Virus record (IMG/VR): IMGVR_UViG_3300028380_000482
Location: 1-64,000 of that record
DNA length: 64,000 bases
Strand: one strand, 5' to 3'
From: a virus
Taxonomy: Duplodnaviria; Caudoviricetes
Positions 23,840 to 47,836 of the stretch are shown here, piece by piece (position 1 is the first letter of the stretch; every line of letters starts with the position of its first letter). Position numbers and translations under genes: made by a program. The notes beneath the pieces are model-generated. The model was not told where the DNA came from. It did no database searches and saw nothing but the letters and a program-made list of their open reading frames with translations.

Positions 23840-24201
23840 CTTCACTCTCGCCTGAAGACTTCTTTGGTCCCCTCGCCGTCATTCATTGGATCGGGCTGTT
23901 TTGTTTTGTGGCCTATCTCATTATGCCGATGCTTTCGGCCTTTGCTGAGGGATGGCTAGAGCGGAGCGCGGAACGAAAGAAGGAGCGAGAATATCAACGG
24001 GCGGCAGCGGAACGAGACCAGGAAGTGGCGGCGATACAAAGGAAGATGGAGCATGAAACGCTGAATAAGCAGTTAGATGCCCTCTATCGGAAAGAGAGAG
24101 AAGAGCAGCGCGGGATTAAGCCCTACGGCACGCTCGAAGAAGAACACCGGGCGTGGGAGGAATTTAATCGGCGGGAGGAGGAGAGGCGATGCCATTCCTA
24201 A
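23836..24201 (+). CDS. single-TM coiled-coil protein
   Basis: N-terminal hydrophobic helix, then Glu/Arg-rich coil; overlaps the trbE start. Confidence 0.6.
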   Translation: MTSLSPEDFFGPLAVIHWIGLFCFVAYLIMPMLSAFAEGWLERSAERKKEREYQRAAAERDQEVAAIQRKMEHETLNKQLDALYRKEREEQRGIKPYGTLEEEHRAWEEFNRREEERRCHS

Positions 24202-26684: not shown

Positions 26685-26884
26685 AACAAAAAATTATTTT
26701 CGGTTTGTGTATGTGGTGGTTCTTCATGTTGGGGGACAATCCGCAGACGGTCGGCTCGTTCTGGAATCAGGATCAATGTGAGGGGATTCGGGTGTGGATA
26801 CAAGAAAAGCAAGCTAATTGGACCATTAGAACGCCTACCTCTCCGTGCTGGTCTGATCAACAAGTACCGCCTGAGAAAGAATAA
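26681..26884 (+). CDS. small exported hypothetical protein
   Basis: AGGAGG RBS; VGSFWNQDQCE motif. Confidence 0.55.
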   Translation: MKQKIIFGLCMWWFFMLGDNPQTVGSFWNQDQCEGIRVWIQEKQANWTIRTPTSPCWSDQQVPPEKE

Positions 26885-26897
26885 GGAGGCAGTATAC

Positions 26898-27803
26898 ATG
26901 GGACCATACGTGCAACCACAGATCATCACAGACGTGCAATGTTTAGAGGGCGTAACCTACGCATATACAACCGGAATTGTTCTTGGGCTTGTTCTGGGAT
27001 TAGCAATCGCCCTGTGGATTATCCCGCTCATGGAAGTGACCATGAAAGCGCTCATGTTCGGCGGGCGATGGCTCTGGAGCAAACGAAAGCGGGTATTTAC
27101 CGCCTCTGCACTAGGAGTTTTCATTCTCTGGACTGTTCCGGCCCAGGCGTGGTTTTTCCCGTGCGGGGGCAACGTCTGCGAGGCGGAAGAGATACCTGTC
27201 AAGGATCAGAAGACCCGTACTGAAACCGCGCTGACTGCCTTGAAGGCTACAGCACTACTGATAGACGCCTTAAAGCAGGCACTCACCAAAGACGGCATTT
27301 GGGATCATCGTACGGGCAATCTGCTGAACGAGATTGCGAACTATACAGCCGGTGAGGGAAGTATCCTCTACGGCCAAGATGGGAGCGGGATGTGGCCGGA
27401 GGTCTATCAGTATGATTCGACGTGGGTTGAAGGTGGCTGGCTCGAAGCGGAGTTAGCGCGAGACCGGGCTTCGTTGTGGACCCAGCGTAGTCTCATGCAT
27501 CACTTAGAATTGATGCGCGCGGAAGACGCGGTAGACGAAGAAGAAATTGACGCACTACAGAGACGGGTGGATGAGTGCGAGGGCCGCAATTGCGCGATCC
27601 AAGCCGGGGCGGCGGTAAACGCCAAGCTGCTGCACGAACAACGCAAAACGCGGGCGCTTATTGCAACGGTAGCAAACGCACAAATAGTGCAGAATGGCTA
27701 TGTCGTAAACAAGGACGCGGCCAATAAAGCGCAGGAACGGTTATTCATTACGAATAACGGCCAAGAACCACAGATGCCCGTATTTCGGGATTGGGGGCTT
27801 TAA
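26898..27803 (+). CDS. trbJ: TrbJ/VirB5-like minor pilin
   Basis: PAQA signal cleavage site; IDALQ....EGRNCAIQAG..N..LLHEQRKTRALIA resembles the TrbJ C-terminus; between trbE and trbL. Confidence 0.7.
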   Translation: MGPYVQPQIITDVQCLEGVTYAYTTGIVLGLVLGLAIALWIIPLMEVTMKALMFGGRWLWSKRKRVFTASALGVFILWTVPAQAWFFPCGGNVCEAEEIPVKDQKTRTETALTALKATALLIDALKQALTKDGIWDHRTGNLLNEIANYTAGEGSILYGQDGSGMWPEVYQYDSTWVEGGWLEAELARDRASLWTQRSLMHHLELMRAEDAVDEEEIDALQRRVDECEGRNCAIQAGAAVNAKLLHEQRKTRALIATVANAQIVQNGYVVNKDAANKAQERLFITNNGQEPQMPVFRDWGL

Positions 27804-27810
27804 TACCCCA

Positions 27811-28050
27811 ATGGCCCTAGGAGGCCACAAGAGGAGGGTACACGTGTCGTACATTATTCTCACATTAGTCTTCATCGGCGGGGCGTTCATTGGCAGTATT
27901 GGGACACTCACTTTAAGTGACTCTTGTCACGAACTGGTTGCGATTGAGAAAGCCCGGGATGCGAAAGAACAAGAACGCGAGGCGAAACTGAAGCAGTTTT
28001 TCGGCGAATCTTCGCCAGAAAAACCAGAATTTAAGGATCGTGGCCTGTAA
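27811..28050 (+). CDS. small membrane protein at the TrbK/entry-exclusion position
   Basis: One TM plus short charged tail, between trbJ and trbL. Confidence 0.5.
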   Translation: MALGGHKRRVHVSYIILTLVFIGGAFIGSIGTLTLSDSCHELVAIEKARDAKEQEREAKLKQFFGESSPEKPEFKDRGL

Positions 28051-29051
28051 TGGAACCCGCACTACTTAGCCAAATTACGCAGCTCTTTAAGAACGGGGCG
28101 CTCGTCTGGGGACCAACCATCTCAGGCATTGTCGAGCCGTGGTACTTCGACACTTTACTGATTGCCTGGTTCTTCGCTTTTTTTGGAATCGCTTTCAATA
28201 TTGGGGTAGACTTTTTTCCTGCGCTGTTCTTATTCTTTATTCGAAACGGGTTCTTTTTGAGTATGATCCGGTTTGGGCCTGAGTGGATTAACCAACTGTT
28301 TGATAGCATCAAGAATCTTGGGTATCGGATGGGGATGCCAAACTTGGACCCCTCGGCGATTGCGGCAATGGGACCTGTCGTGGCCGATCCGATTATGAAA
28401 AGCCTCGCAGACCAGGGGATGTTATCGTATCTCTTTAGCCCTTCGACCTACATTTTTAGTTTTGCTGGTGTCGCCGTCGAGTTCGCGTTTCTCGCGCTCG
28501 CCTTTATGACGATGGCAACTCTGATTCTCAGTTATGTATTGACGGCGGGCTGTCCCTTCTTTTTTGTCTTCGCGGCGATCCCGTTCACACGCGGGATGAC
28601 GATGGGCTATGTCCGACTCGTCTTCGGGACTCTCGCTACATTATTTACCATTCTCCTCATTACGGCGAACGTCGTTGAGGTCGGGGAGTTGATACAGGTA
28701 TGGGAACGAGCGGTTTTTCTCAATCCTGCGGTGACACTCACTGCAAGTGATTACGCGCTGCCGCTTGGCGTAGCGATCGTACTGACCTGCATGTTCATTT
28801 GGTTGCCGATCAAGGTCGGGCGGGAGATGTACGGATTCGTACCGGAGTGGAGTGGCGGGCGGGCGGCAGGGTTTGCGCTTGGCGGGGTTCGTGCCGCCGG
28901 TGGTGCGGCACAGGACGCCTTTCAGAAGATGACGGGCGGCGGCGGGAGTCACAGCAGTTCAGGCGGCGGAGGAAGCCCAAGCCGCACTGGTGGGGGCGGT
29001 AGTCCCAAAGGGACACTCGGGACAACGCCGTGGGGGTTTGCAAAACCATGA
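28050..29051 (+). CDS. trbL: TrbL/VirB6 polytopic membrane protein
   Basis: WINQLFDSIKNLG...DPSAIAAMG, several TMs, Gly/Ser-rich tail. Confidence 0.82.
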   Translation: MEPALLSQITQLFKNGALVWGPTISGIVEPWYFDTLLIAWFFAFFGIAFNIGVDFFPALFLFFIRNGFFLSMIRFGPEWINQLFDSIKNLGYRMGMPNLDPSAIAAMGPVVADPIMKSLADQGMLSYLFSPSTYIFSFAGVAVEFAFLALAFMTMATLILSYVLTAGCPFFFVFAAIPFTRGMTMGYVRLVFGTLATLFTILLITANVVEVGELIQVWERAVFLNPAVTLTASDYALPLGVAIVLTCMFIWLPIKVGREMYGFVPEWSGGRAAGFALGGVRAAGGAAQDAFQKMTGGGGSHSSSGGGGSPSRTGGGGSPKGTLGTTPWGFAKP

Positions 29052-29295: not shown

Positions 29296-29717
29296 TTAAC
29301 TCCGGCCAATGGCACGAGTGCCCGGTCTGTGGTGCAACGGTACGGCTTGGGTTTGAGACCTGTCGGCGCGAACGACAGACGATGGTCGTCACGTATGAAA
29401 ACTCTCTTGGTTGGCTGAGCTGGACGGTCGGACGACAACGCAACTTTGAAGTGCAAACATTGTGTGTGTGGTGCGGGGAGCAGGAGGACGCGGCAATCGC
29501 TGCACGGAAGCAGCAGAGGCTCCTCCTGCTTGGTGGGTACGGAGTGGGTTTTTACGGCTGGTTCAAGTACGGAATGGTAGGGTTGTATGGGGCAGGGGGG
29601 GCGGTGGTTGCGTTCATACTTGCGAGCTGGTTGTGGCGGCGACATCGCGCAGGACGAATGCAGGAACAGAAGCAACTCTATCTAGAGATAATGGACCGGG
29701 AGAGGAGGGCGGAATGA
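29292..29717 (+). CDS. zinc-finger membrane protein
   Basis: CPVC...CVWC and two C-terminal TMs; coupled at both ends. Confidence 0.55.
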   Translation: MINSGQWHECPVCGATVRLGFETCRRERQTMVVTYENSLGWLSWTVGRQRNFEVQTLCVWCGEQEDAAIAARKQQRLLLLGGYGVGFYGWFKYGMVGLYGAGGAVVAFILASWLWRRHRAGRMQEQKQLYLEIMDRERRAE

Positions 29718-30472
29718 ATAGCATCTTATCTTGGTTTCGACGATCAAAACCGAATCCAGTTGACCTGAGCACGCCACACGTTCGCGCGCAAGTCAAACTA
29801 GATTCCAAGGAACGGAACCATCAACGACTTGTTCGGGCATGGCAGACCGCAGCGGCGGGAGCGTTCCTTCTGGCGTGCGGATCAGGCTACGGCAACTACT
29901 GGCAGTTGAACCGAGCGGAGGTCGAGTATCAGTTTACTGTCTACAGTAATACCTATCAGCCGGTCCCATTTCTTGTTCGCCGGGCCAGTGTCATTTCAAA
30001 CCTCGACCCGCAGAAGCAAGGCATCGTGGGCATGGTACTGAATCGTTATATCGAGTTATGGCGGCTCCGTATCATGGAAGGCAACTTTCTGATTCGCCAG
30101 TTGAACCAAGCGAGGAGCATGATTGCTGGACCTGCGCTTGGGAAGTTCGACGCCTGGTACAAAGATACCGATCCGGTGAACAAGAGCGAACGAGAGAAAG
30201 TGGTTGTGCGGGTGAGCGAATCCCCACCGATGCCAGTATCACAGATGCCGTCAGAGAATACATGGGAAGCGGCATGGACAGAGGAACTCCAAGATCGCAA
30301 TGGCGTGGTGCTAGGAACACAAAATTGCACTGGTCATTTTCGCATTAAGTATGATCCGAAGTTTGCCGATCCGCTCAATGTATTTGGCGCGGTCGTGATC
30401 GATCAGACGGAACAATGTGGGAAAGGAGCACCCCAGGGGAGGGTACAAGGGGGGAATTATGCCTCTAAGTAA
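29714..30472 (+). CDS. trbF: TrbF/VirB8
   Basis: RAWQ + TM; SENTWEAAWTEE...G.F.I....NVFGAVV. Confidence 0.8.
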   Translation: MNSILSWFRRSKPNPVDLSTPHVRAQVKLDSKERNHQRLVRAWQTAAAGAFLLACGSGYGNYWQLNRAEVEYQFTVYSNTYQPVPFLVRRASVISNLDPQKQGIVGMVLNRYIELWRLRIMEGNFLIRQLNQARSMIAGPALGKFDAWYKDTDPVNKSEREKVVVRVSESPPMPVSQMPSENTWEAAWTEELQDRNGVVLGTQNCTGHFRIKYDPKFADPLNVFGAVVIDQTEQCGKGAPQGRVQGGNYASK

Positions 30473-31388
30473 AGATACGAAATACGGACTATTTTTGGTT
30501 CTTTTCTTAGGGGGGTGTGCGGTTCCCCCGGTCAGACAGACGCCAGTTGACGTATCAACGCCACACCTGGCAGCCACGCCAGCAGCACCTCCGGCTATCG
30601 CAGGGAGTGTGATACCGGCAGTGCAACTGCATCCTCAGATGGCCGAGGCTCCCATTCCTAGGGCGCGCATTACTCCCGCCGTTGATGTAATTGGTAAGAC
30701 CGCAGCAACCCTGATTTTCGATCCTGATCGGCAATATCCGCTCGTCTGCCCCATGTGGCGACAGGTGATTGTCAGGCTTCTTCCTGGCGAGATTCTGCGG
30801 GATTATGGGGCACCAAACGGAGAAGAGTGGATTATTCAACCCTCCTCTTCGTCGGTGAACGGAGAAGAGGTGGTAGTGTTCTTCATCAAAAGCACGCCGC
30901 TCGCTCCGGTGACTGACTTCACGGTAACGACCGACAAGAACATCTACATGATGCAGCTTTTACCCAGTGGTAAGGGTGTGAATCGCAATGTGCGGCTCGT
31001 GCGGTTCCGCGATCCAAACGCCGAACTCCTCCGAGAAGAAGCCCGGATTGCTAAAGAAGAACGACGGCGACAACGAGCGCTAGAGCCCAAGATACCGACG
31101 CTGAACACAGTGACAGCGCGCACGTATCAGGTCAGCGGGCCTGCGGTGGTGTGGCATCCGGTGAGTGTGACAGGAGACGATGTGCATACCTTTATTAAGC
31201 TGCCATCTGAGACCGGGGCAGAGTTGCCGATCCTCACAGTCATGCGAGACGGCGAGTATGAGCAACCAAATTATCGGACAGTACGGGACACAGATGGGCG
31301 GGTTGTGCTGGTAGTTGATGGGCCGGTACGACAGCAAGCGAAGCTGACCGGCATGGATGGTGAAGTGCTGATTTCAGGAGGGAATTAA
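30459..31388 (+). CDS. trbG: TrbG/VirB9 core-complex lipoprotein
   Basis: Lipobox LGGC; LLPGE, VTTDKNIY, WHPVSV..D..HTFIKLP, PNYR, LVVD. Confidence 0.85.
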   Translation: MPLSKDTKYGLFLVLFLGGCAVPPVRQTPVDVSTPHLAATPAAPPAIAGSVIPAVQLHPQMAEAPIPRARITPAVDVIGKTAATLIFDPDRQYPLVCPMWRQVIVRLLPGEILRDYGAPNGEEWIIQPSSSSVNGEEVVVFFIKSTPLAPVTDFTVTTDKNIYMMQLLPSGKGVNRNVRLVRFRDPNAELLREEARIAKEERRRQRALEPKIPTLNTVTARTYQVSGPAVVWHPVSVTGDDVHTFIKLPSETGAELPILTVMRDGEYEQPNYRTVRDTDGRVVLVVDGPVRQQAKLTGMDGEVLISGGN

Positions 31389-31389: not shown

Positions 31390-31839
31390 ATGGACATGTC
31401 ATTATTCAGCTTTTTGTGTGCCTGGGCGCTAATTGTGCTGACTATTATCGGAGTCTTTATTTTAGGGGCTGTTGTATTCGGAATTGCGGCGTGGTTAGAG
31501 CAACAAGGGCCGATCTTGCGGCTTAAATTTTGGGCGTATGTTGCGACCAAACCACGACTAGAAAAGGCGGTTCCACTGCTCTTTTCCGGGCTAGGAATTG
31601 GCGTCCTTTTTACTCTACCTGCGAGCTTCTTCTGGCTGCTAACTGTTGTCGCATTTCCTGAGGGATTACTTACCGAACCCGCGCCTTCTGTTCCTAACTC
31701 GGAGGTTGCCTTAGCAATCACCCTTGTTCTTATGAGCATTGTCTCTGTGTGTGCGATTGGCGTTGTCAGTCCAAAGCCAGAAGCGAAAGAATCGGCAGAG
31801 AAAGACATGCAATCTAGTCAGTTAGTGAGGGGGAGCTAA
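31390..31839 (+). CDS. three-TM membrane protein
   Basis: Hydrophobic segments; inserted between trbG and trbI. Confidence 0.6.
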   Translation: MDMSLFSFLCAWALIVLTIIGVFILGAVVFGIAAWLEQQGPILRLKFWAYVATKPRLEKAVPLLFSGLGIGVLFTLPASFFWLLTVVAFPEGLLTEPAPSVPNSEVALAITLVLMSIVSVCAIGVVSPKPEAKESAEKDMQSSQLVRGS

Positions 31840-33023
31840 TGGCTGGGCCAGCAATCAATAATCCTACTCCACAACCCAGGAAACGGGGCGCGTCACCTCG
31901 CTTCTTTAAGCTCGCAGTGGGTCTCCTGGTAGCGATGGCAGTCGGGCTTTTTTGGGTGCGGTGGACCGATATACGGCATCGGGGGGGAGAGGCTTCCGCC
32001 TCTCCAACGTTACTCAATCGAGCACAAACTGACCTGACCTTACCGGATAAGAAAAAAGAAGAAGTCAAAACACCGCCTGTACAAAACAAGGAACCGAAGA
32101 CACAAGACAAGCACGAAGCGCGGCAGCCTAGGAAAAAAACTAAGTTTGAAGAGATGCAGGAAGAGAAGCGGTTAGCGGCGATTTGGGGGAATCCAATCTT
32201 GGGACGAAACACCCCAAAGGAGGGTGCAAGGGACGGACAAGAACGTAACAACGCGCAACACGCGGCCCGCTCGCAAGAGCCATATAATGACCGAAACACT
32301 TTGGAAGTGGGGTCAACAGGCAGCAATGGGCGCGGCAATCGCGCAGACGCAAGCCTCTGGAACACCAGCTTTGACAAGCGCGGGCGGGGGCAAGTTGGGG
32401 TGCTGCAAGCACCGCTCTCGCCGTTCACGGTATGGCCGGGGTGGAAGATTCCGGTCAAGTTAGTGGATGGAATAGATACGGATACGCCCGGTCAGATTAG
32501 CGCAGTAGTGGTGGAAGATGTGATGGACTCGGCAACCGGAATGCACAAGTTAGCACCTGCGGGCACGCGCATTCTCGGCTCATACGACGACCAAATTCAG
32601 CGGAGTCAGGAGCGATTACCAAATGCTTGGCATACGCTGATCTTGCCGAATGGGCGACCAATGGCACTCGGCGGAATGCCGGGGGCCGACCGGCGTGGGG
32701 TGTCAGGCATCCCGATTGAGACTGACAATCACACATGGGAAATCGCAGGCCAAGCCTTGCTAATGACGGTCACAGGGGCAGCGGGTCAGATGGCGACACG
32801 AGGTGGGTACAGCGGCAACGACGTTGACCCAGGCGATGCGTTACAGATGGAAGCGGGGCGCGAGATTCGCCGATCGGGGCGGCAGGTAGCGGGGCGCGGG
32901 TATCGGCAGCCGACCGGGAAAGCGGAGAGTGGGGAAGTCTTCTTTGTGGTTGTGACGGCCCCATTGGATTTTAAGCAGCCTTATCAAGAAGAGACTGACG
33001 TTGCATTTGGAGAAGAGGAATGA
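31839..33023 (+). CDS. trbI: TrbI/VirB10
   Basis: SPFTV.PG..IP..L..GIDTDTPGQISA.V..DV.DS.TG..L.P.GTRILG.YD, DNH. Confidence 0.92.
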   Translation: MAGPAINNPTPQPRKRGASPRFFKLAVGLLVAMAVGLFWVRWTDIRHRGGEASASPTLLNRAQTDLTLPDKKKEEVKTPPVQNKEPKTQDKHEARQPRKKTKFEEMQEEKRLAAIWGNPILGRNTPKEGARDGQERNNAQHAARSQEPYNDRNTLEVGSTGSNGRGNRADASLWNTSFDKRGRGQVGVLQAPLSPFTVWPGWKIPVKLVDGIDTDTPGQISAVVVEDVMDSATGMHKLAPAGTRILGSYDDQIQRSQERLPNAWHTLILPNGRPMALGGMPGADRRGVSGIPIETDNHTWEIAGQALLMTVTGAAGQMATRGGYSGNDVDPGDALQMEAGREIRRSGRQVAGRGYRQPTGKAESGEVFFVVVTAPLDFKQPYQEETDVAFGEEE

Positions 33024-33544
33024 CCTTCTTTCTTCGCATAATCGGTGCGTTCTGTCTGCTCGTGCTACTGAGCGGGTCGGCAATCAACTCGTTCGGGTAT
33101 CACGTCAACATTACGAACTCGCTCCCTCGCGGTATCTATAAGATAGCCCACGGTCCAGTAGTTCGGGGAGCTTTAGTAGTTGAGTGTTTGTTGCCGCAAC
33201 TCTCCAAATTGGGCAAAGATCGAGAATGGATCGGGCGCGGCTCGTGTCCAAGCGGCACTATGCCGATCCTCAAGCGCGTAGTCGGAGTGCCGGGTGATAC
33301 GGTGACGGCGACACGGGACTACATCCAGATAAATAGTTTCATTCTGCTTAATACGGCGTCTCTGTTTCTGGACTCACAGGGGCGGGAAATCCCCCGTGTC
33401 GGAGATCACACCTACACGTTACAGCCCGGACAAGTGTTATTGTTGGCCGACAATCCGCAGTCGTGGGATAGTCGGTACATGGGGTCAGTGGACATGACAA
33501 CGATCCTCGCAACGGCGGAGCCGGTCTGGTTATGGGAGGACTAA
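33020..33544 (+). CDS. traF: conjugal pilin-processing S26 peptidase TraF
   Basis: NITNSLPRGIY, G.CPSG..PILKRVVGVPGD, SWDSRYMG. Confidence 0.9.
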   Translation: MTFFLRIIGAFCLLVLLSGSAINSFGYHVNITNSLPRGIYKIAHGPVVRGALVVECLLPQLSKLGKDREWIGRGSCPSGTMPILKRVVGVPGDTVTATRDYIQINSFILLNTASLFLDSQGREIPRVGDHTYTLQPGQVLLLADNPQSWDSRYMGSVDMTTILATAEPVWLWED

Positions 33545-33734: not shown

Positions 33735-34703
33735 GTGAACACGAATCGTCGCCAACAAGAGCGCATTCTTGACGATTACGAGACCGGGCTGGGGCCGGAG
33801 ATTCGGGCTGCGATCCGCAAACCGGGAGTCACGGGGATCAAGGTTGCGGGCGAAGACGGGAAGCTCTTTGTCAAAGAACACAGCACGAAATGGGTCGATA
33901 CGTTGCATGTGGTTCCGTTAGCGGTCCGGCGATCGACGCTCAATATGATCTCTTCCGAGTTGCAGAAGTCATTCAACGAAGAACAACCAAGCCTCTCCGG
34001 CGAGCTGCCGTTGACCGGAGATCGGGTGCAGGCGTGGTGCCCACCGATCGCAGACTACAGTCTCGTGATTCGCCGCCACAGCTCACAAGTCTTTTCATTG
34101 GAAGACTATGTTGACGCGCAGATCATGACCCAACAGCAGGCAAATACACTGCGGCGGTACGTACATGAGCATAAGAACATGGTGTGGTGTGGCGCAGTCG
34201 ATAGTGGCAAAACCACTGCCTGTAACGCCTGTCTAGCAGAAATCGAGGGAACCGAGCACGTCTTTATTGTTGAGGATACCAAGGAACTAAAGTTTCTCGG
34301 TGCAAACGTCACGCGACTCCAGACCGCCAATTCAGTCGCCACATTACAGAGTCTTGCGCGTGATTCGTTGCGTGGCGATTACGACCGCTTAGTGATCGGC
34401 GAGACACGCGGTGCGGAGGGGGTTGAGGTCATCAAGATATGGAACGCTGGGCGGCGGGGTGGATTTACCACGGTGCACGCGGAGAGTGCGGCGGGTGCGT
34501 TTGTGCGGTTTGCGATGTTCTGCCAGGAGGCAAGGTTGCCGCCTTTGTGGATGCAGATCGAGGCAGCGATTGACGTTGTGATACATATCGCCATGACGCA
34601 AGAAGGACGGAAAATTACCGAGATCAGGGAGGTGCAGCATGAAGACATAGACATACCAATTAAGTTCAAGCGGCAAGAAGAGATGTACACAACAACACAT
34701 TAA
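33735..34703 (+). CDS. trbB: T4SS ATPase TrbB/VirB11
   Basis: PSLSGELP..G.R, GAVDSGKTT, VEDTKEL, LR...DRLVIGETRG.E, TVHA. Confidence 0.92.
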   Translation: MNTNRRQQERILDDYETGLGPEIRAAIRKPGVTGIKVAGEDGKLFVKEHSTKWVDTLHVVPLAVRRSTLNMISSELQKSFNEEQPSLSGELPLTGDRVQAWCPPIADYSLVIRRHSSQVFSLEDYVDAQIMTQQQANTLRRYVHEHKNMVWCGAVDSGKTTACNACLAEIEGTEHVFIVEDTKELKFLGANVTRLQTANSVATLQSLARDSLRGDYDRLVIGETRGAEGVEVIKIWNAGRRGGFTTVHAESAAGAFVRFAMFCQEARLPPLWMQIEAAIDVVIHIAMTQEGRKITEIREVQHEDIDIPIKFKRQEEMYTTTH

Positions 34704-34715: not shown

Positions 34716-35051
34716 ATGGACGGTATGGTGCGTAGGGGACGGTTGATGTGGCTGGTTTTAATTGCGGTCGCGGCGATGGTCGGACTAGACGCCGGTGGGG
34801 CGATGGCCTCAGGAACAAACACGCTGGCGGAGATGAGTGCGGGCGTGTTAGCGGTTGGTGACACGTTACAGAGCACGGAAATCCTGGGGAGCATTGGATT
34901 CTGGCTGGTGGCGATTGGGGCGGTGGGGTTGCTGCGTGGGGATCTTGGTGCGGGGTGGGTGGGGTTCTTTATTCTGTTTATTGTCGTTGGCGTGCTGTTC
35001 AATGGACAGAATATCGTGGAGGCAATCGGCTGGTCGGCGGCGGTGGTATAG
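34716..35051 (+). CDS. trbC: TrbC/VirB2 major pilin
   Basis: Signal peptide (AMA/S) plus two hydrophobic helices; follows trbB. Confidence 0.7.
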   Translation: MDGMVRRGRLMWLVLIAVAAMVGLDAGGAMASGTNTLAEMSAGVLAVGDTLQSTEILGSIGFWLVAIGAVGLLRGDLGAGWVGFFILFIVVGVLFNGQNIVEAIGWSAAVV

Positions 35052-35105: not shown

Positions 35106-35474
35106 ATGAACGATTCATCATACCAAGACACTCCGATTATTCTACCCTTAGCGCAGGGTGTGTTGAGTCCTATCAAGCGGTGTGGAGCAGAACGCGCCCC
35201 TGCCGATTTGGGGTTTCTCCTTGCCTTTCTCATGTTCATGACAGCCATGTATGGACAGTGGAAAGCGCTCTACTTTCTTATTTTCCCGATCGCGTGGCAC
35301 ATCGCCTGGATGATCGTTTTCAGTCGAGACCCGCAGTATTGGGCGATCATGATGCGACAATGTGTGTGGTATCCGTGGCCGGAGTGGGTGCAAGCATGGC
35401 CGGGCCTTGGGGCAAAGCCAGTGAAGATCGAGGCAAGCGTGCCATTCAGGGGTGAGGCGGCGTATTCGGCATAA
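35106..35474 (+). CDS. trbD: TrbD/VirB3
   Basis: P....GAER + two TMs + RDPQ signature. Confidence 0.8.
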   Translation: MNDSSYQDTPIILPLAQGVLSPIKRCGAERAPADLGFLLAFLMFMTAMYGQWKALYFLIFPIAWHIAWMIVFSRDPQYWAIMMRQCVWYPWPEWVQAWPGLGAKPVKIEASVPFRGEAAYSA

Positions 35475-35623
35475 GAAAGTGTCGGACTTAAAATCGAGAG
35501 TTTTCATGCGGACAGAAATTTCGATTTTAACCCAGAGACGCCAGCGGTTTGGGGATTGTAGACGGCGATTGCATAATCTGGAAATAAGAATCAGCATTAA
35601 CGCGGAGTTACGGGGAGGGATGG

Positions 35624-35818
35624 ATGTCTACCGGGGTAAAAATAGGGATTGGACTGTTGACGCTTTTGTTGACGGGGTGCGCACAGAGTACGAGTTACCC
35701 ACGGAACACACGAAGCGGGTACTACGGGACGACTCGGAGCCCCACGTATGAAGTAACCCGCCAGATACAAGAGGTAGCGAGAATGCGGCGGGCATGGGAG
35801 CAGCTACGGAGATACTGA
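35624..35818 (+). CDS. small lipoprotein (possible VirB7/TrbH or exclusion protein)
   Basis: Lipobox LLTGC. Confidence 0.6.
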   Translation: MSTGVKIGIGLLTLLLTGCAQSTSYPRNTRSGYYGTTRSPTYEVTRQIQEVARMRRAWEQLRRY

Positions 35819-35819
35819 A

Positions 35820-36221
35820 ATGCCGTTTCGCAAAGCGGATTACGGCCCCGAGTGGGACCGGATTAAGAAACGGATACTTGAGCGCGAGGGGTATCGGTGT
35901 CGCATGTGTGGAGTGAAGCGGTACTCAGTCGGGGTGCGGCATAAGGATGGCAGATTCACGTTACACATTGAAGCAGCGAGTTACGAAGAAGCCCGCCGCT
36001 ACGCCAGAGACGGCGGGGGATTGATCGTTGTCAAGCTCGCCGTTGCTCACTTAAATCATGACTTAAGTAATCACGAACAATTCTTGACGGCCTTATGCGA
36101 TTATCACCACCTAAAACACGATCAGCCACAGCACACGGAGAATTCCAAGAAGACACGGGCCGCGAAACGGGAGCGGATACAATCGGAGTTATGGGATGAG
36201 CAATACGGTGTACTCATTTAG
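35820..36221 (+). CDS. phage HNH-like protein
   Basis: W..IKKRILEREGYRCRMCG...LAVAHLNHD..N...L.ALCDYHHLKHD. Confidence 0.8.
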   Translation: MPFRKADYGPEWDRIKKRILEREGYRCRMCGVKRYSVGVRHKDGRFTLHIEAASYEEARRYARDGGGLIVVKLAVAHLNHDLSNHEQFLTALCDYHHLKHDQPQHTENSKKTRAAKRERIQSELWDEQYGVLI

Positions 36222-36585
36222 GTTAAGCGACGAGATGGAAGTACGGGCGGAAGTACAGGCCAAACAGCGAGGGCTGAAGAGCGGGCACGCGCTCATGAAA
36301 GAGATCGTCGAGAACTATTTTAATGGAGAGGGAGACAAGCGCCAGAAGAACATGGACCTTTTGTTGGCCGAGATTGCAGGGTTGAAGGGTGAGGTAGGCG
36401 AGCTGACGTATGAAGTGATGCGGACGCGGGCGATGGTGGCGCGGGTGATTGATCCGAAGGGCGGAGAGCAAGGGGAGAAGGGAAAGCTGTTGATGGAGGT
36501 GGCGGGGAAGGATGTGGCAGCGTACGTGAACGGAGAGAATGGAGGAGCAGCATGTCAGACAAACGGACGAGAGAAGATTACATAG
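36196..36585 (+). CDS. RHH protein, TrwA/MobC-like relaxosome accessory candidate
   Basis: VYSFRLSDE...A..RG.....LMKEIVENYF followed by a helical oligomerisation segment. Confidence 0.6.
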   Translation: MSNTVYSFRLSDEMEVRAEVQAKQRGLKSGHALMKEIVENYFNGEGDKRQKNMDLLLAEIAGLKGEVGELTYEVMRTRAMVARVIDPKGGEQGEKGKLLMEVAGKDVAAYVNGENGGAACQTNGREKIT

Positions 36586-36986
36586 CAGAACACGGGACGC
36601 TAGCGGCAGTAATCGGGCAAATGATTACGGACCTGAGCGCGGGCGAGATTTCTCAGGAAGAAGCACGGAGACGCTTTCTCGACTACACCATAGAATACGA
36701 GTCGCTTCCACAGCGCGAGGGCTTCATTCAAACGTCCTCGATTGTGTCAGGACGGACCGGCAAGCCGCTGGTGGATTACCGATGGGATGACAAGCGGGTT
36801 CAGTGGACACCGGAAGAGGCACAGGCTCATGCGTTAGTGATTCTCGCGTGTGCTGAGGCGGCGATCATGGACGCGGCAGTGGTGGAGTTTTTGAAGGTGC
36901 GGATGGATCTTGATTGGGAAAAAGCGGCAGCGTTCGTGCATGACTTGCGGAACTTCAGAGAGGACATGAAAAAGGAATGGCAGTAA
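36552..36986 (+). CDS. hypothetical phage protein
   Basis: SIVSGRTGKPLV...QWTPEEA..HAL..L..AEAA..DA. Confidence 0.7.
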   Translation: MSDKRTREDYIAEHGTLAAVIGQMITDLSAGEISQEEARRRFLDYTIEYESLPQREGFIQTSSIVSGRTGKPLVDYRWDDKRVQWTPEEAQAHALVILACAEAAIMDAAVVEFLKVRMDLDWEKAAAFVHDLRNFREDMKKEWQ

Positions 36987-37186
36987 CCCCCGCTCGCCTT
37001 ACGGCGGTCCTTCGAGTGGCGAACTTTGTCCGCCGACTCTCAGACCCGCACGCTCGGCTTCGCTACGTTCACACCCTCTGTTGGGGTGACGCTGCTTAAA
37101 CTACCAGCGGCAGTCCTTCAGTTAGTGACCTCCGGCCACATAACTTCAGACCTGCACGCTTAGGCCCGTATCGAAAGGAATTCAAA

Positions 37187-37438
37187 ATGTGGACTCGACT
37201 GACGGACGAGATGGTCCTGACCGAGATTGTGTTGCTGCACGGGTGGGCGACGGCGTATACCGTGCAGCAGTTGGTTGAGGATCGGCTTGGTCGCAGAGTG
37301 AGGATGGGAGAGATTGGCAGGCGAGTACGGCGACTGTTTGCTGAACGGAAGATCAAAGTCATCGAGCACCGGGGCGGGGCGCCGTGGCGGTACGAGCCGT
37401 GGGGCTATGCGCTGGTGCGGGATGAATGCCACCCCTGA
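37187..37438 (+). CDS. winged-helix-like small protein
   Basis: AAGGA RBS; shares LTD(E/D)(M/L)V start motif with 38460-38804. Confidence 0.55.
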   Translation: MWTRLTDEMVLTEIVLLHGWATAYTVQQLVEDRLGRRVRMGEIGRRVRRLFAERKIKVIEHRGGAPWRYEPWGYALVRDECHP

Positions 37439-37465
37439 GAAGGGTGCAAGCGGAAGGGGTAGCCA

Positions 37466-37933
37466 ATGCGAGCATGGGTTGTGTGGCTGGTGTTGTGTGT
37501 GACGGTCGCGTTCGTGGTAAAGCAATTCCTACTGGCACCCCAGTGCCAGGGAGAGGGGTGGCAGAGTATGGAGACCGCGCCACGACAACCACCAACCGAG
37601 GGGACAGCGGCGATTCCGATTGAGTTGTGTTATGCACGCAAGGGAGGGAAGCCTTGGTATGGGCTCTTTGCGTGGACAAATAGAGTACAGGTTGGACCGT
37701 CTGCTGACGAAGCAATTCCTCGTATTTACCCACAAGAGAAAGTTGCAGTCTCTAGATGTTTAGGAACGGCGAACGAATGCAGTCAAGCCCTTGTAGTGAA
37801 ACTGAAAGAATCAGAGTGGGTGAATCTGACCAAGCCAGGACACGGAATTGGGGATGAGAAGTTTTTCCTATGGCGAGTACCAGAGACAACGGACCCGAAG
37901 GAGTATGAAGCACTCAATCTAAATAAGGAATAG
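37466..37933 (+). CDS. membrane-anchored hypothetical protein
   Basis: N-terminal TM; WQSMETAP phage motif. Confidence 0.6.
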   Translation: MRAWVVWLVLCVTVAFVVKQFLLAPQCQGEGWQSMETAPRQPPTEGTAAIPIELCYARKGGKPWYGLFAWTNRVQVGPSADEAIPRIYPQEKVAVSRCLGTANECSQALVVKLKESEWVNLTKPGHGIGDEKFFLWRVPETTDPKEYEALNLNKE

Positions 37934-37936
37934 ATC

Positions 37937-38230
37937 ATGCCACTGGGGAACCGCTGTTCACGCTGCGGGCGGGGGCTTGGGCCGGGGGCACAAGAGGCGC
38001 TCTTTGGGGGCCACGAGATTTGCTACGCGTGTTTGAATACCCCCGCCTATGAAGAGATGCTCAGTGAATTGCCAACGGACGAGAGAGCGGACTGGGACCG
38101 ACTGTCGTTATGGGAGAAGGGGTTTATTCGCTCGATTCGGGAGCAATACGAAGAGCGGGGGACGTTGAGCGATTTGCAGGCAGAGAAGGTCGAACAGGTA
38201 TGGGAACGGTGGCAACGGAGACGGAGATAG
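37937..38230 (+). CDS. zinc-finger hypothetical protein
   Basis: CSRC..CYAC; LSLWEKGFI.SI..Q....LSD.Q motif. Confidence 0.65.
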   Translation: MPLGNRCSRCGRGLGPGAQEALFGGHEICYACLNTPAYEEMLSELPTDERADWDRLSLWEKGFIRSIREQYEERGTLSDLQAEKVEQVWERWQRRRR

Positions 38231-38232
38231 GC

Positions 38233-38472
38233 GTGCCTTGGAAATACTTTTTGCTTGTGTTGCCGGTGTGGGGGATGTTCACTGCGGCGGTTGGGATGGT
38301 GTTTCATGATTTGGGGTACAAGGAAGGGCTGGTTGTTTGTGAGCATCCGAAGCAAAGTAAACTACAGGAATGGCGGTATGCAGGTGACTGTGTTTGCCTT
38401 GACCCGACCGGCAATCTTGTGTCTTCATCGTGCGAAGCAAAGGGGAGTGGGGGGATCGCATGTCAAAAATAG
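38233..38472 (+). CDS. small membrane protein
   Basis: TM followed by a Cys-rich tail. Confidence 0.45.
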   Translation: MPWKYFLLVLPVWGMFTAAVGMVFHDLGYKEGLVVCEHPKQSKLQEWRYAGDCVCLDPTGNLVSSSCEAKGSGGIACQK

Positions 38473-38804
38473 GGAGTTGGGTTTTCGACAAGATATTCGG
38501 ACGGAAGCTCCTGACCGACGATCTGGTGTTTGCGGTCATTGCCGAGATGACCCCCAGGCCCGCGCATGCAGAAGATGTAGGAGAAATCATCGCGAACCGC
38601 GTAGGGCGGGACATCAGCAAGCGGGTGCTACTCACACACTTTGATAATCTCTTAGAGGCTGGGCGGATTGTCGCGGTGTGGGGTGGGGAGGGGCAGGAAG
38701 GGATACACAGACGCAAGTACGCCCCGTTCTTTGCGGTGTTACGGCCCGAACTCCGCCCTCCTGGGAAAGGCGTGCTGCTGACACCGGCCAGGGAGAAGAA
38801 GTGA
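38460..38804 (+). CDS. winged-helix-like protein
   Basis: Coupled to the coupling-protein gene; wHTH-like pattern. Confidence 0.55.
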   Translation: MSKIGSWVFDKIFGRKLLTDDLVFAVIAEMTPRPAHAEDVGEIIANRVGRDISKRVLLTHFDNLLEAGRIVAVWGGEGQEGIHRRKYAPFFAVLRPELRPPGKGVLLTPAREKK

Positions 38805-40606
38805 CAAAGACAAACGCGCTTCTCTGGAAGCTCGAACAACTCAAGACGTGGTCTCAAATCCAAGCCTCCGCCATGCAGTATTGGTTCCGGTGGGGCATTG
38901 TTGTGTGGCTGGTCAGCGCTGTGATTATTCTCGCGATGGGACTGACGATCGAGCCGGAACGGAAACAGAACGCAGTCACGTGGATAATCGCTAGCGTCGG
39001 TGCCAAGGCGCGGATCAAGACCATAGGACTCAAGACAGTCTGGTGGAAAGGCGACCCCTACGAGCCGCAGGTATTGGCAGAGTGGATGGACAAGCATGTG
39101 TACGGCGGGGCGCGGTTAAGTCAGTGGCTCGCGTGGGCGGCGGTGATGGGAATTGGACCAGTGAGTCTGATTGGCAGTATTGGGTTGTGGCGGGTACGAA
39201 AGAAGGCCGCGAAGGATGGAGAGCAACACATCAGAGGGGCGCAGATTCACACAGTTGAGGAGCTACAGAAACGAATAGGAATCAGCAGAGGAGACGGAGT
39301 TTTTGTTGGCGAGGTCTTCGTGCCGAGGGAGCAGATCAACGCCCACACCGGGATTGTCGGCTCGACTGGGGCAGGGAAATCGACGCTGATGGAGGGGATA
39401 CTTGAGCAGATCGAAGCGAGGGGAGAGCGGGTGGCGCTGGTTGATGTGGAGGGAACGTTTACGGCGAAGTTTTTCAATCCCAAGCGCGGGGATGTGATTC
39501 TGAATCCCTTGGACCGACGCTGGCAAGGGTTTGACATCAGCGCCGAGTGCGAACGGTTAGAAGACTGCGAAGCGATTGCGACGAGCCTGTTTCCGATTAC
39601 CGGACGGATGCGCGGGACGACCGGAGAGTATTTTGCTCGCGTCGGGCGGCGCGTGATCCGGGATGTGCTCAATGTGATGCGACAGCAGGGCAATGCCGAC
39701 CTGCGTGTGATTCCCGAACTCCTCCGGCATCCGAAAGCCCTGCTGGAGATGCTCGGAGACACGGAGGCAGCGGCGGAGCTGGGGTACAAAGACAGCAGAG
39801 AACGGCGGCAATTTCTTTCGGGCATTCGCACGGCGACAGACAGCTTTCGGTATCTCGATCCACAGCCAGGCGACTTGGCGAGAGACACTGTCCCGTGGAG
39901 TGCCCGGCAATGGGTCACACAAGGGGAAGGCTGGTGCTTCTTTACGGTGAGTGAATCGCAAAAAGCAGCGGTGTTGCCGTTTATTGGCTTAGCGCTTGAC
40001 CTCCTCGGACGGCAATTGTTAGAACAACCGCTTCGTCCTGAGAAACTCCTGTGGCTCTATTTTGACGAACTCGGAGACTTGCCCGCGCTAGCGACGTTGC
40101 CACGGATTGCCACACGAGTACGGAAGCGCGGTGGGGCGATCGTTTACTCGATCCCGGACCGGAGCAAGTTAGAATCGGTGTACGGAGAACACGAGACTGA
40201 TTCGATTCTGAACGCGGCGGCGGTGCGCGTATATATGCAAACTAATGACCCCAAGACCCAGGAGTGGGTTGCGGCCAGTATCGGGCGGCATGATGTGGCA
40301 CGGCAGGTCGAGAGCCACACGATGGGGAGTAAAGATGGACGGGATGCGGTGCATCTCAATCCCAACCTGAGCCGAGAAGAATACGCGATCACGCCCTCAC
40401 AGGCCGGGCAGATTCCGGTCGGGCGTGCCTACTTGAAGGTGGGCGCCTTTGGCACGGCGTATATTCGGATTCCCCTGGTGGAGCGGGAGGAGCAGGAGTC
40501 CGGCTTTCTGCCTCGCGCTGAAGCCGAAGAACTAAGAGAGGCTGAACAAGAGGAAGCGGCAGATTGGCAAGCGGACGCGCTGGCGGATGTCAGGCGAGCG
40601 ATTTAA
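38801..40606 (+). CDS. trwB: type IV coupling protein, TrwB/TraD family
   Basis: Two N-terminal TMs; HIRGA; GSTGAGKS; ILNPLDRR; WSARQWV; WLYFDELGDL; RKRGG; L..VYG. Confidence 0.92.
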   Translation: MTKTNALLWKLEQLKTWSQIQASAMQYWFRWGIVVWLVSAVIILAMGLTIEPERKQNAVTWIIASVGAKARIKTIGLKTVWWKGDPYEPQVLAEWMDKHVYGGARLSQWLAWAAVMGIGPVSLIGSIGLWRVRKKAAKDGEQHIRGAQIHTVEELQKRIGISRGDGVFVGEVFVPREQINAHTGIVGSTGAGKSTLMEGILEQIEARGERVALVDVEGTFTAKFFNPKRGDVILNPLDRRWQGFDISAECERLEDCEAIATSLFPITGRMRGTTGEYFARVGRRVIRDVLNVMRQQGNADLRVIPELLRHPKALLEMLGDTEAAAELGYKDSRERRQFLSGIRTATDSFRYLDPQPGDLARDTVPWSARQWVTQGEGWCFFTVSESQKAAVLPFIGLALDLLGRQLLEQPLRPEKLLWLYFDELGDLPALATLPRIATRVRKRGGAIVYSIPDRSKLESVYGEHETDSILNAAAVRVYMQTNDPKTQEWVAASIGRHDVARQVESHTMGSKDGRDAVHLNPNLSREEYAITPSQAGQIPVGRAYLKVGAFGTAYIRIPLVEREEQESGFLPRAEAEELREAEQEEAADWQADALADVRRAI

Positions 40607-40886
40607 GAAGGCTGCCATGAAAATCACCGCGCATGATCGACCTGTGAGTTTGCATGTCATGGTGTTTCTCAACGGCAAACTCTGTTCCCGGCACATCTTC
40701 TCAGCCGATGAAGACCGGGGAGAAATCGTCGCGTATGCCGACAGTCACGAAAGAAGATTCCGGTTGAATCCTCAGACGCAAGAGCCGGAAACTGACATCC
40801 TGACAGGGACGGTGGAAATTGTGTTGAAGCCTAATGCAGGCCCCCTGATCGAACGGCTCTATGCAAAGATGCGCAAGCAGAGGTGA
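40587..40886 (+). CDS. hypothetical phage protein
   Basis: VFLNG......ADEDRG.I......G.VEI motif. Confidence 0.65.
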   Translation: MSGERFKKAAMKITAHDRPVSLHVMVFLNGKLCSRHIFSADEDRGEIVAYADSHERRFRLNPQTQEPETDILTGTVEIVLKPNAGPLIERLYAKMRKQR

Positions 40887-43958: not shown

Positions 43959-44798
43959 ATGGATGTTCAAGGGCAGTGCGAATTTTGTCATCAACCAGTA
44001 AAGAGGAAGCAACAATCGGTATCGGCGAATGTACGAATGCATTTCTGTAACAACCAGTGCAAGGGCGAATACCAACGGCTAGCCAAACCTGTCACGAAAG
44101 AATGGCTTGAGCAGAAATATCTCGTAGAGAAATTAGACACGAGTATCATTGGAAGGCTCGTCTCTCGCGACCCTAAATCAGTATGGAATTGGTTAAAAGA
44201 TTTTCACATTCCCACGAGAGGGCGAGGTGGGCACAACAAAAGAGTTGGCGGGCCTAAATGGGTGCCGTGTCATATTGAAGTCATGCGACCTGCTCAAATT
44301 GATCTTGAGCGATGGTACCGAGAAGAATGGCAAAGTCTTGCTACCATCGCAGAAAGATTACAAGTCGGAGAAACTACGGTAGGTCGATGGTTAAATCATT
44401 ATCAAATCCCCTTACGTTCAATAAAGGAGTATCGCGCACGAGATGGCCGTGTTCCCTATCTTAAAAATGGTGTTCATCATTTGAAGGGGAAGCGCGGGGT
44501 TGAAACTCCCAATTGGAAAGGCGGCATTACACCGGAGCGGCAAGCCTTCTATCGATCCGAAGAATGGAGAATGGCGTGTATTACGGTGTGGAGAAGAGCA
44601 AAAGCGTATTGCGAACGGTGTGGAGAGAAGCAACGTAAGAAAGATCGCGGCACTTATCATATTCACCACGTCATTTCATTCAAGGTTCGGGAGTTGCGAG
44701 GAGTGCCAACAAACTTACTCCTCCTCTGTAGCCCCTGTCATCGATTCGTTCATAGCAAAGTAAATGTTCATAAAGAATATCTAGGAGAAGTATCATGA
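43959..44798 (+). CDS. HNH homing endonuclease with Zn finger and HTH repeats
   Basis: FCNNQC; NWKGGIT; CERC..HIHHV...NLLLLCSPCH..VH. Confidence 0.85.
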   Translation: MDVQGQCEFCHQPVKRKQQSVSANVRMHFCNNQCKGEYQRLAKPVTKEWLEQKYLVEKLDTSIIGRLVSRDPKSVWNWLKDFHIPTRGRGGHNKRVGGPKWVPCHIEVMRPAQIDLERWYREEWQSLATIAERLQVGETTVGRWLNHYQIPLRSIKEYRARDGRVPYLKNGVHHLKGKRGVETPNWKGGITPERQAFYRSEEWRMACITVWRRAKAYCERCGEKQRKKDRGTYHIHHVISFKVRELRGVPTNLLLLCSPCHRFVHSKVNVHKEYLGEVS

Positions 44799-46521: not shown

Positions 46522-46677
46522 GGGTGCAAGCACCCCGACAGAGGGTGCAAGCACCCCGACAGAGGGTGCAAGCACCCCGACAGAGGGTGCAAGCACCCCG
46601 ACAGAGGGTGCAAGCACCCCGACAGAGGGTGCAAGCACCCCGACAGAGGGTGCAAGCACCCCGACAGAGGGTGCAAG
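46522..46677. repeat. perfect tandem array, 7 x 21 bp plus a 9-bp partial copy (GGGTGCAAGCACCCCGACAGA)
   Basis: Units start at 46522, 46543, 46564, 46585, 46606, 46627, 46648, 46669; each holds the dyad GGGTGC-AA-GCACCC. Confidence 0.97.
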
Positions 46678-47242: not shown

Positions 47243-47836
47243 TTGAAAGCATTTATCTATACGTCAGCAATTGCTCTTACGCTCTTCACCGGGTCTGCCT
47301 TCGGTCAGACCTACAATCCCACTAAAAGCGACGAGGCTACGCGCAATACGGCCTCGGGTACATTCGCAGTGCCGAACAACAGCGGCAAGGACAACACCGG
47401 AATCGGCCACCGCACAATGCCAGTCCTGACTACAGGTATCCGTGATACGGCGACGGGAAGTGGGGCAGGGGCGGGGCTCACTACGGGACAAGAAAACAGC
47501 TTGTACGGCTATCGGGCGGGAACCTCGCTCAAGTTCGGGTCGGCCAATACGATGATGGGCGCCGACGCGGGCTGGAGGATGACCAACGGCACCAGCAATA
47601 CTATTCTCGGTTACTCCGCCTGTAATATGCTGACGACTGGAGCGAACAACACCTGCATCGGCGCGGGGGCGGGGGCAGCGGTCACCGGGATCGGCAATGT
47701 GATCATCGAGCATCCCGGGAAGGTGGGTGAGTCCTACGGTGTTCACATTGGCAGTGCAGCCCACACCAAAGTGACGGTCGGGGCGTACGATTTGGCAGAC
47801 TTCGATGCACGCTTAAAGGCGTGCGAAGCGAAGTAA
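47243..47836 (+). CDS. secreted beta-roll (NT.G repeat) adhesin/fibre-like protein
   Basis: Signal peptide SAFG/Q; ~14-aa NT..G..A repeats; C-terminal DARLKACE coil. Confidence 0.75.
   Translation: MKAFIYTSAIALTLFTGSAFGQTYNPTKSDEATRNTASGTFAVPNNSGKDNTGIGHRTMPVLTTGIRDTATGSGAGAGLTTGQENSLYGYRAGTSLKFGSANTMMGADAGWRMTNGTSNTILGYSACNMLTTGANNTCIGAGAGAAVTGIGNVIIEHPGKVGESYGVHIGSAAHTKVTVGAYDLADFDARLKACEAK

Follow-up and report, generated by a model that had tools for sequence, protein, structure and literature searches.

The window analysed here is a stretch of 64,000 nucleotides (bases 1-64000 of the 107,563-base IMG/VR virus record IMGVR_UViG_3300028380_000482; Duplodnaviria, Caudoviricetes). Its region 35,475 to 40,886 holds a gene for a ribbon-helix-helix (RHH) protein and a gene for a type IV coupling protein (T4CP), just downstream of the genes encoding a type IV secretion system (T4SS). 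A first-pass annotation, made from the sequence alone, had noticed these two genes and the lack of a relaxase gene in the window. The remainder of the record encodes, on the minus strand, the large terminase (TerL), the portal, a Mu-F-like head protein, the major capsid protein and minor tail protein/tail genes, and, as these structural and packaging genes show, the element is a tailed phage. We found that its genome is closed and that it contains no recognisable relaxase. Features are on the + strand unless stated otherwise.

The mating-pair-formation (MPF) genes of the T4SS occupy roughly 24.2-35.5 kb. They start with a VirB4/TrbE-like ATPase of 831 aa (24189..26684), which matched CagE_TrbE_VirB with an E-value of 2.2e-6, carries the Walker A motif GIAGRGKT and has the same position as the 820-aa VirB4 of the Acidobacteriota locus L007. 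Then follow a TrbJ/VirB5-like protein of 341 aa with one transmembrane (TM) segment (26778..27803; NCBIfam TrbJ_Ti, 3.6e-4, a match given to this open reading frame (ORF) by position only), VirB6/TrbL (28050..29051; Pfam TrbL, 8.3e-8), VirB8 (29462..30472; Pfam VirB8, 3.5e-9), VirB9/CagX (30417..31388; Pfam CagX, 9.3e-16), VirB10/TrbI (31839..33023; Pfam TrbI, 8.5e-36), a TraF-like S26 signal peptidase of the pilin maturation type (33020..33544; Peptidase_S26 on the record, 3.1e-14, with a matching position in L007) and the VirB11 ATPase (33735..34703; Pfam T2SSE, 1e-27, with the P-loop GAVDSGKT and the Walker B motif VFIVED). The TrbL, VirB8, CagX, TrbI and T2SSE matches exceed the Pfam cut-offs. 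The last two genes had no family match. One encodes a putative VirB2/TrbC-like pilin (34716..35051) with a signal-like N-terminus and two hydrophobic segments, located after VirB11 as TrbC is in L007, and the other a membrane protein with one TM segment (35106..35474), which is probably VirB3-like judging by its position relative to VirB3 of L007.

The T4CP has 601 aa (38801..40606). It matched TrwB_AAD_bind (4.4e-69) and TraG-D_C (1.5e-15) in the ORF 38678-40606, and the start at 38801 comes from independent gene calls. The Walker A motif GSTGAGKS, the sequence WLYFDE resembling Walker B and a pair of TM segments at the N-terminal end are present, in line with the coupling protein predicted earlier at this position, as are 16 of the 16 residues that are invariant over an 11-sequence alignment of its clade. 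The protein is strongly divergent, with about 25% identity to plasmid TraD and at most 29% to anything else among 5.8 billion proteins. The MPF genes and the T4CP are full length when compared with L007, and the P-loops of all three ATPases (VirB4, VirB11 and the T4CP) are intact. Judged by gene content and synteny, the machine is of the VirB/Trb-type (MPF_T-like) kind of T4SS and the coupling protein is a member of the TrwB family.

The RHH gene (36196..36585) encodes a protein of 129 aa with a C-terminal coiled coil, which resembles TrwA/NikA by position and profile. No match was found in Pfam (including PF21983), PHROG or NCBIfam. Using hhalign, residues 1-70 aligned to a set of four small proteins encoded upstream of the T4CP in relatives, two of which carry the NikA-like PF21983, with an E-value of 1.6e-4 and a probability of 50%. 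The control, a 114-aa protein whose gene overlaps the T4CP start (38460..38804, a gene call), gave an E-value of 0.26 against the relatives' small upstream proteins and is not NikA-like. The structural model of the RHH protein is of low confidence (predicted local distance difference test, pLDDT, of 55) and shows helices at 12-25, 29-41 and 46-85, that is, a strand-helix-helix arrangement followed by a long helix. Its Foldseek list consists nearly entirely of RHH proteins (CopG, Arc, PutA, NikA), every one of them with an E-value of 0.7 or higher. The label RHH, TrwA/NikA-like, is reasonable but not proven. The earlier call of an RHH gene at 36196 is thus supported, less firmly than that of the T4CP.

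The nearest relatives of the T4CP are 23-31% identical and come mostly from Acidobacteriota, and at least 591 relatives of its clade were confirmed by tblastn. We inspected the 80 best relatives in GTDB species genomes (L032-L111), nearly all of them from Acidobacteriota. The relaxase gene trwC lies directly downstream of the T4CP gene on the same strand in 73 of these 80 loci (73 of the 75 with enough flanking sequence); five loci have too little flank, one has TrwC elsewhere in the locus and one has none. A MOBF-type TrwC is encoded directly downstream also in all seven other relatives with an identifiable downstream gene (L007, L008, L022, L023, the P0006 contig, L029 and L030), and in P0003 the ORF after the T4CP is cut by the contig end. 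As 80 of the 82 informative relatives have TrwC in this slot, it does belong there, as the first-pass annotation had expected, and the phage is a clear exception. Several relatives have an RHH gene upstream of the T4CP, and L007 has the same MPF set as the phage, ending with the S26 peptidase; after it come two small ORFs, an RHH gene of the NikA-like type, then the T4CP and finally TrwC. Two of the relatives with TrwC downstream, L029 and L030 (IMGVR_UViG_3300045141_000181, 72.8 kb, which also has VirB10 and an S26 peptidase), are filed as viral and may be phages or misfiled conjugative elements.

The corresponding slot in the phage (40617..41919) holds four small ORFs of 89, 104, 120 and 92 aa. 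The first one matches the phage families phrog_24619 (2.4e-6) and phrog_3540, which agrees with the small phage ORFs reported there earlier, and the second has a signal-like N-terminus. A tblastn search with the TrwC of a relative hit 40638-40763 within the 89-aa ORF (E 0.92, 28% over 39 aa). We regard it as a chance hit, because the clade profile described below was negative and the ORF belongs to phage families.

We searched the whole genome in six frames for seven relaxase families, namely TrwC (PF08751), Relaxase (PF03432), TraI_2 (PF07514), MobA_MobL (PF03389), Mob_Pre (PF01076), Rep_trans (PF02486) and Replic_Relax (PF13814), and obtained 0 matches at E<=10. We also made a hidden Markov model (HMM) of four TrwC proteins from the closest relatives and ran it with filters off on six-frame ORFs of at least 40 aa; it returned noise only (best E 0.48). 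The HxD/E..HxH (3H) motif was found in no plausible ORF and the H-U-H-U motif in none of the 117 called genes. The sole Y1_Tnp match (E 2.6e-7), at 18597-18683 next to a TnpB-like ORF, is what remains of a TnpA C-terminus (29 residues) and not a relaxase. We also rejected an apparent IcmJ/DotN-like T4CP adaptor: the NCBIfam match (8.5e-6) falls on the zinc-finger/HNH part of the genes at 17447-17857 and 35820-36221, reaches 23.6 bits where the cut-off is 100, and is also obtained in 7 of 14 control genomes. The statement that the window lacks a relaxase can be extended to the whole genome for the seven families and the motifs given here.

Several independent data show that the genome is complete. 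The record begins with eight C and finishes with twelve C. The ENA contig L024, an independent assembly, runs through genome positions 1148->1 and then directly through 107562->95416, with an 8-nt alignment overlap inside an 11-nt homopolymer, and a second ENA contig of 34 kb has the identical gene order over the junction. Logan contigs from two runs extend 25.9 kb and 4.1 kb beyond the left end, and a 72-kb Logan contig joins the T4SS region to about 26 kb past it. The phage genome therefore closes at about 107,555 bp, being circular or circularly permuted, with no part missing, and the earlier assumption that a missing part would be mostly structural has become moot. Chimeric assembly is excluded: the genome closes, and contigs of the Joint Genome Institute (JGI) from three samples show 100% identity throughout the tra region and the adjoining phage genes. 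Pattern scans for the junction in viral and metagenome contigs gave no match, closure being shown instead via protein look-up, and no repeat was found where the 72-kb Logan contig was expected to have its far end. The phage was seen in at least 14 rhizosphere metagenome runs and its host is probably a member of Acidobacteriota in rhizosphere soil. A near-DNA search of the phage collection found no match, scans of IMG/VR with the T4CP and VirB4 as queries found no relatives, and a TerL relative (85% identical) is on one 4-kb contig only.

In the relatives, the short gap just before the RHH gene contains a hairpin, CGGTGC-TTC-GCACCG, then a spacer, GAAGAATTTTGACACTC, and then a palindrome, CACCCC-N4-RGGGT. 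The palindrome is present in exactly one copy in 34 of 79 loci, 560-1190 nt upstream of the T4CP, and shuffled sequences contain 0.4 copies in total. The L044 locus has the block in the 168-nt gap immediately before its RHH gene (4931-5099). In plasmid R388 the origin of transfer (oriT) lies upstream of trwA, and by analogy the block of the relatives is probably an oriT plus promoter region. The stretch 4931-5099 of L044 and its counterparts in at least 34 further GTDB loci are a candidate oriT of a large Acidobacteriota T4CP-TrwC clade, near-invariant over many species.

The phage has neither this hairpin nor this spacer, and the best Hamming distance was no better than for shuffled sequence. 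The palindrome is present in more than 11 copies, in the form CACCCC-N5-AGGGTG(CAAG). Single copies are at 30429, 32210, 37072(-), 37430, 41147 and genome position 104205(-), mostly on the coding strand. Two copies lie just after the RHH operon. The copy at 37072..37088 (-) is intergenic and is kept in L112, a contig of a second lineage introduced below, and that at 37430..37446 is 20 nt upstream of the start of a 155-aa gene. Copies precede the start codons at 37466, 41204 and ~46692 by 18-41 nt. Seven tandem 21-bp copies of CACCCCGACAGAGGGTGCAAG occupy 46531..46673, where independent assemblies break. As the palindrome is present while the hairpin and spacer are not, the phage module appears to have kept one protein-binding or structural element of the block and to have lost the part where the nic site would be expected. 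With no relaxase found and the presumed nic region missing, the module does not qualify as a MOBF DNA transfer and replication (Dtr) module or as a self-transmissible element. We predict that the RHH protein binds the palindrome.

Two JGI rhizosphere metagenome contigs, L112 (1-5014) and L113, represent a second lineage with the same gene order, matching 34.2-39.3 kb of the window. L112 is 100% identical from the gene of an 83-aa protein into the N-terminus of the T4CP; identity is 91% for a free-standing HNH endonuclease (35820..36221; phrog_1571, 5.7e-15), 78% for a 144-aa ORFan (an ORF with no assigned function) that is translationally coupled to the RHH gene (36552..36986; phrog_23845, 2.9e-5), 58% for the RHH protein, 47% for VirB3 and 26% for the pilin. 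The ratio of nonsynonymous to synonymous substitution rates (dN/dS) against L112 was 0.34 for HNH, 0.30 for RHH and 0.14 for the 144-aa gene. This pattern indicates mosaic exchange among living relatives under purifying selection, the pilin having diversified strongly, and not decay; it also suggests swapping of pilus and regulator alleles. Because the HNH gene is 91% conserved across the mosaic boundary and its neighbours 26-58%, it seems to behave like a homing endonuclease. From its sequence the module looks functional.

We propose that a tailed phage captured a MOBF-type conjugation module, which in related elements comprises the MPF genes, the RHH gene, the T4CP and TrwC. The phage would have kept the whole, intact MPF machine (VirB2, 3, 4, 5-like, 6, 8, 9, 10, 11 and the TraF peptidase), the coupling ATPase and the RHH protein, and would have lost TrwC together with the hairpin-plus-spacer of the block, the direction of the loss being our reconstruction. 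The T4CP may then feed phage-encoded proteins into the channel, and/or the pilus may mediate contact with neighbouring cells. The RHH protein probably became a transcription factor with CACCCC-N5-AGGGTG as its likely operator; a palindrome standing once upstream of the RHH gene in the relatives would have been spread by the phage before several genes and into the 7-copy array. With TrwC and the hairpin and spacer lost and no other recognisable relaxase in the closed genome, a canonical relaxase-piloted launch of phage DNA is not expected. We give this relaxase-independent T4SS, serving protein export and/or cell contact, a probability of roughly 0.42, which makes it our favoured but tentative reading.

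Several points weigh against it. Pfam scans turned up no effector-type domain and we identified no protein substrate. The earlier suggestion that the T4SS may export proteins is the option that we prefer. A retained DNA-binding accessory protein of the relaxosome type fits a DNA substrate equally well, and the palindrome might act as an RNA hairpin or be bound by a different protein. Many ORFans are unplaced and a relaxase of a new kind may be conceivable among them. The search for MOBC was crude (phmmer with ORFs of the CloDF13 record, whose mob region is poorly annotated) and gave nothing below E 0.07; the only PD-(D/E)xK-like motif seen (6326-6970, by eye) is beside an SNF2 helicase gene, 30 kb away. 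Finally, the base for all of this is one sequence type and a 5-kb fragment of a second lineage.

Among the alternatives, the T4SS might still move phage DNA, nicked and piloted by a non-canonical initiator such as an ORFan or a nuclease (HNH, VRR-NUC-like or prim-pol). The T4CP and the relaxosome-type RHH protein are retained under purifying selection, the palindrome from the probable oriT region has been kept and amplified, there are ORFans to choose from, and cell-to-cell spread would presumably suit a soil phage. However, no called gene has the HUH motif and the phage genome has no tyrosine or serine recombinase. The first-pass annotation had named an HNH nickase, the C-terminus of the primase or UvrD as possible pilots. 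The HNH gene beside the RHH gene resembles a homing endonuclease, as described above, and we know of no HNH enzyme that forms the covalent 5' adduct needed by a pilot, while for the primase and UvrD no evidence was found. The flanks of the phage palindrome copies are unlike the spacer of the relatives, and nothing nuclease-like matched the model of the 144-aa partner. We consider such an initiator rather unlikely.

It would also be conceivable that the module is recently captured, non-working cargo and that the loss of the relaxase is its first step of decay. It is true that the phage no longer has the relaxase or most of the probable oriT block, and selfish elements (HNH genes and an IS605-type TnpB) are found in or near the block. 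On the other hand, eleven MPF genes and the T4CP are all full length with intact ATPase motifs and clade-invariant residues, the codon-usage scores match those of the rest of the phage, the dN/dS values are well below 1, and the second lineage has very different pilin and VirB3 alleles. Since the closest non-phage relatives are only 23-31% identical, the capture does not seem to be recent. Moreover, conjugative elements that decay usually lose MPF genes while their relaxase stays. Decay is therefore an unlikely explanation, somewhat weaker than a new initiator.

A relaxase borrowed in trans, another suggestion of the first-pass annotation, would come from an integrative and conjugative element resident in the host, whose TrwC would nick the phage DNA for export by the phage T4CP and T4SS. 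T4CP-TrwC elements are very common in the likely host phylum, as seen from the number of confirmed relatives, and the phage keeps one palindrome of their block. It lacks the CGGTGC-TTC-GCACCG hairpin and the GAAGAATTTTGACACTC spacer, however, and cross-recognition is doubtful because the phage T4CP is so distant from the T4CPs of those elements. A borrowed relaxase combined with a costly full MPF set of one's own would also be the reverse of the known mobilisable elements. We find this scenario improbable.

About as improbable is that the RHH and 144-aa genes form a toxin-antitoxin-like or regulator pair unrelated to the T4SS, which would make 'TrwA-like' a misnomer. The top Foldseek matches of the RHH model are antitoxin RHH domains (CopA_SO, VapB, MazE), the two genes overlap and diverge together in L112 between more conserved flanks, and the RHH gene is 2.2 kb from the T4CP gene, unlike its adjoining position in the relatives. 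Against this, the hhalign result ties the RHH protein to the small upstream proteins of the relatives, the palindrome upstream of their RHH gene recurs in the phage, and the 144-aa protein is acidic (net -8) with no match to a toxin family or a toxin-like fold. This alternative bears on the RHH label only and overlaps the other readings, and the probabilities behind our wording are not meant to total 1. Lastly, a canonical relaxase missed in an unassembled part of the genome or through a phage/conjugative-element chimera, to which the CheckV completeness of 93% and the IMG/VR label 'linear' might point, is hardly credible in view of the closing contig L024, the 34-kb and 72-kb contigs, the identical JGI contigs and the negative six-frame searches.

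In a bolder reading, the phage might use its conjugation-derived, relaxase-free T4SS during infection or carriage, either to bring its genome into neighbouring cells via a new kind of initiation or to send phage proteins that prepare or tether neighbours before lysis. We hold such a role to be rather doubtful at present; if true, phage spread or host manipulation would have a second route, one that depends on cell contact.

The genes between and around the RHH gene and the T4CP are mostly small. The model of the 144-aa protein (pLDDT 65) has no recognisable fold; in the ESM Atlas it lies nearest to clusters of viral hypothetical proteins (0.82), which we take as no more than a lead, and a BglII-like assignment (E 0.0096) was dismissed as it fell short of the cut-off and the model has no nuclease-like match. 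The 83-aa protein (37187..37438), for which a winged-helix fold is suggested by eye only, and the 114-aa protein are paralogues (24% identical from end to end by BLASTP, E 0.005), and neither has a family match. The gene of the former comes after the RHH operon, and that of the latter runs into the T4CP start. Three further ORFs at 37466..38472, known from gene calls and TM profiles and with no family match, encode proteins of 155 aa (N-terminal TM segment or signal), 97 aa (Cys-rich N-terminus) and 90 aa (one TM segment).

Elsewhere in the genome, a 345-aa gene spans the circular junction (window 1-942, minus strand, into genome 107460-107555). By eye, its N-terminal half is ParB-like and is followed by the start of a DNA methylase, with a negative result for the Pfam family ParB_N, and it is this gene, not a morphogenesis gene as stated earlier, that the left window edge enters. 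Its 3' part contains the poly-C tract, with 11 C in L024 and 12 in the record, and the frame changes accordingly (326 aa vs 345 aa); the tract could be a phase-variable switch for a downstream 586-aa methylase, or an assembly or sequencing slip. Unassigned ORFs are not all below about 230 aa as had been claimed: larger ones are 9953-10789 (278 aa), 26778-27803 (341 aa), the C-terminus of the primase and the junction gene. PDB sequence searches with the junction gene, the 278-aa protein, the 144-aa protein and the primase gave no match, nor did ESM Atlas give a usable one for a 211-aa protein. Rfam and tRNA scans of the window found no match. ParB_N had 0 matches in Pfam and neither an integrase nor a resolvase was found; general Pfam scans turned up no Rep family, and the 7 x 21-bp array is iteron-like by resemblance only.

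Selfish endonucleases are numerous (17447-17857, 35820-36221, 43959-44798, 60934-61800), with at least three HNH genes, one of them with helix-turn-helix domains, and a weak LAGLIDADG match on the strand opposite the tail genes. An IS200/IS605-type insertion occupies 18597-19790; its TnpB-like ORF of 364 aa (18696-19790, +) has by eye a YRLYPTKRQ start, GIDVG and C-terminal CxxC pairs, and longest-ORF calling at this locus chooses the antisense frame. The C-terminal half of 6326-6970, between two SNF2 helicase genes, shows by eye a VRR-NUC-type PD-(D/E)xK motif (GVPDL...EIWVETK) with no Pfam match. Just upstream of the T4SS block, 21055-22602 encodes a galactose-oxidase/glyoxal-oxidase-like protein with Kelch repeats (GO-like_E_set, 1e-22), an unusual cargo for a phage. 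Directly after the tandem array, 47243-47836 and 47907-48728 encode proteins with signal-like N-termini and Gly/Asn/Thr-rich repeats, the second with a terminal coiled coil, which could be fibre- or adhesin-like.

We thus have a closed phage genome in which a mating machine and a coupling ATPase are apparently under selection, yet the part that defines DNA conjugation is lost. The use of a T4SS by a phage becomes a testable question, and the phage offers a natural case for what a T4CP recruits without a relaxase. By-products are the large Acidobacteriota T4CP-TrwC clade with its conserved candidate oriT and a dispersed phage palindrome tied to that region.

When compared with known systems, the phage resembles the R388-type MOBF Dtr modules with a VirB/Trb T4SS of Acidobacteriota elements such as L007 and L044: its MPF set corresponds near one-for-one to that of L007, including the TraF-type S26 peptidase, and it shares a probable RHH accessory protein, the TrwB-family T4CP and the CACCCC-loop-GGGT palindrome, which in the relatives is upstream of the RHH gene. 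It differs from them in having no TrwC and neither the first hairpin nor the spacer, and in the low T4CP identity given above. VirB11, the pilin and VirB3 have moved behind the peptidase relative to L007, six small ORFs and an HNH gene stand between or beside RHH and T4CP, and the replicon is a tailed phage.

To our knowledge, no VirB-type T4SS or T4CP has been described for the streptococcal 'conjugative prophage' Phi1207.3. The part of the report that is accessible gives conjugal transfer and 58 ORFs for this element, with no mention of a T4SS there (PMC4260502). Phi1207.3 is comparable in being a phage genome that is reported to move by cell contact too (PMC4260502), and differs in being a Gram-positive prophage. 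Phage-plasmids such as P1, N15 and SSU5 also combine tailed-phage genes with plasmid-type functions in one element (PMC7969092, PMC12282955), but our phage has no ParB, integrase or resolvase match. In neither of these two papers did we find a phage-plasmid with a mating-pair apparatus, and the review presents conjugation and virion transfer as alternative ways of moving genes (PMC12282955). Full-text searches of the literature turned up no paper with terms for a T4SS or conjugation system encoded by a phage. Relaxase-less VirB/D4 exporters are known, and none found in the searched literature is on a tailed phage, derived from conjugation and with its RHH accessory kept.

Examples of these effector-translocating or bacteria-killing exporters are the X-T4SS of Xanthomonas and the VirB/D4 system of Bartonella, which have a full VirB set and a VirD4-type T4CP and no relaxase gene. 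The phage system differs from both in being phage-borne and not chromosomal and in having kept the RHH accessory, and family scans showed no effector-type domain or effector-immunity pair. Because its set is otherwise like theirs, with a full VirB complement, a VirD4-type T4CP and no relaxase, proteins would be the expected cargo of the phage T4SS.

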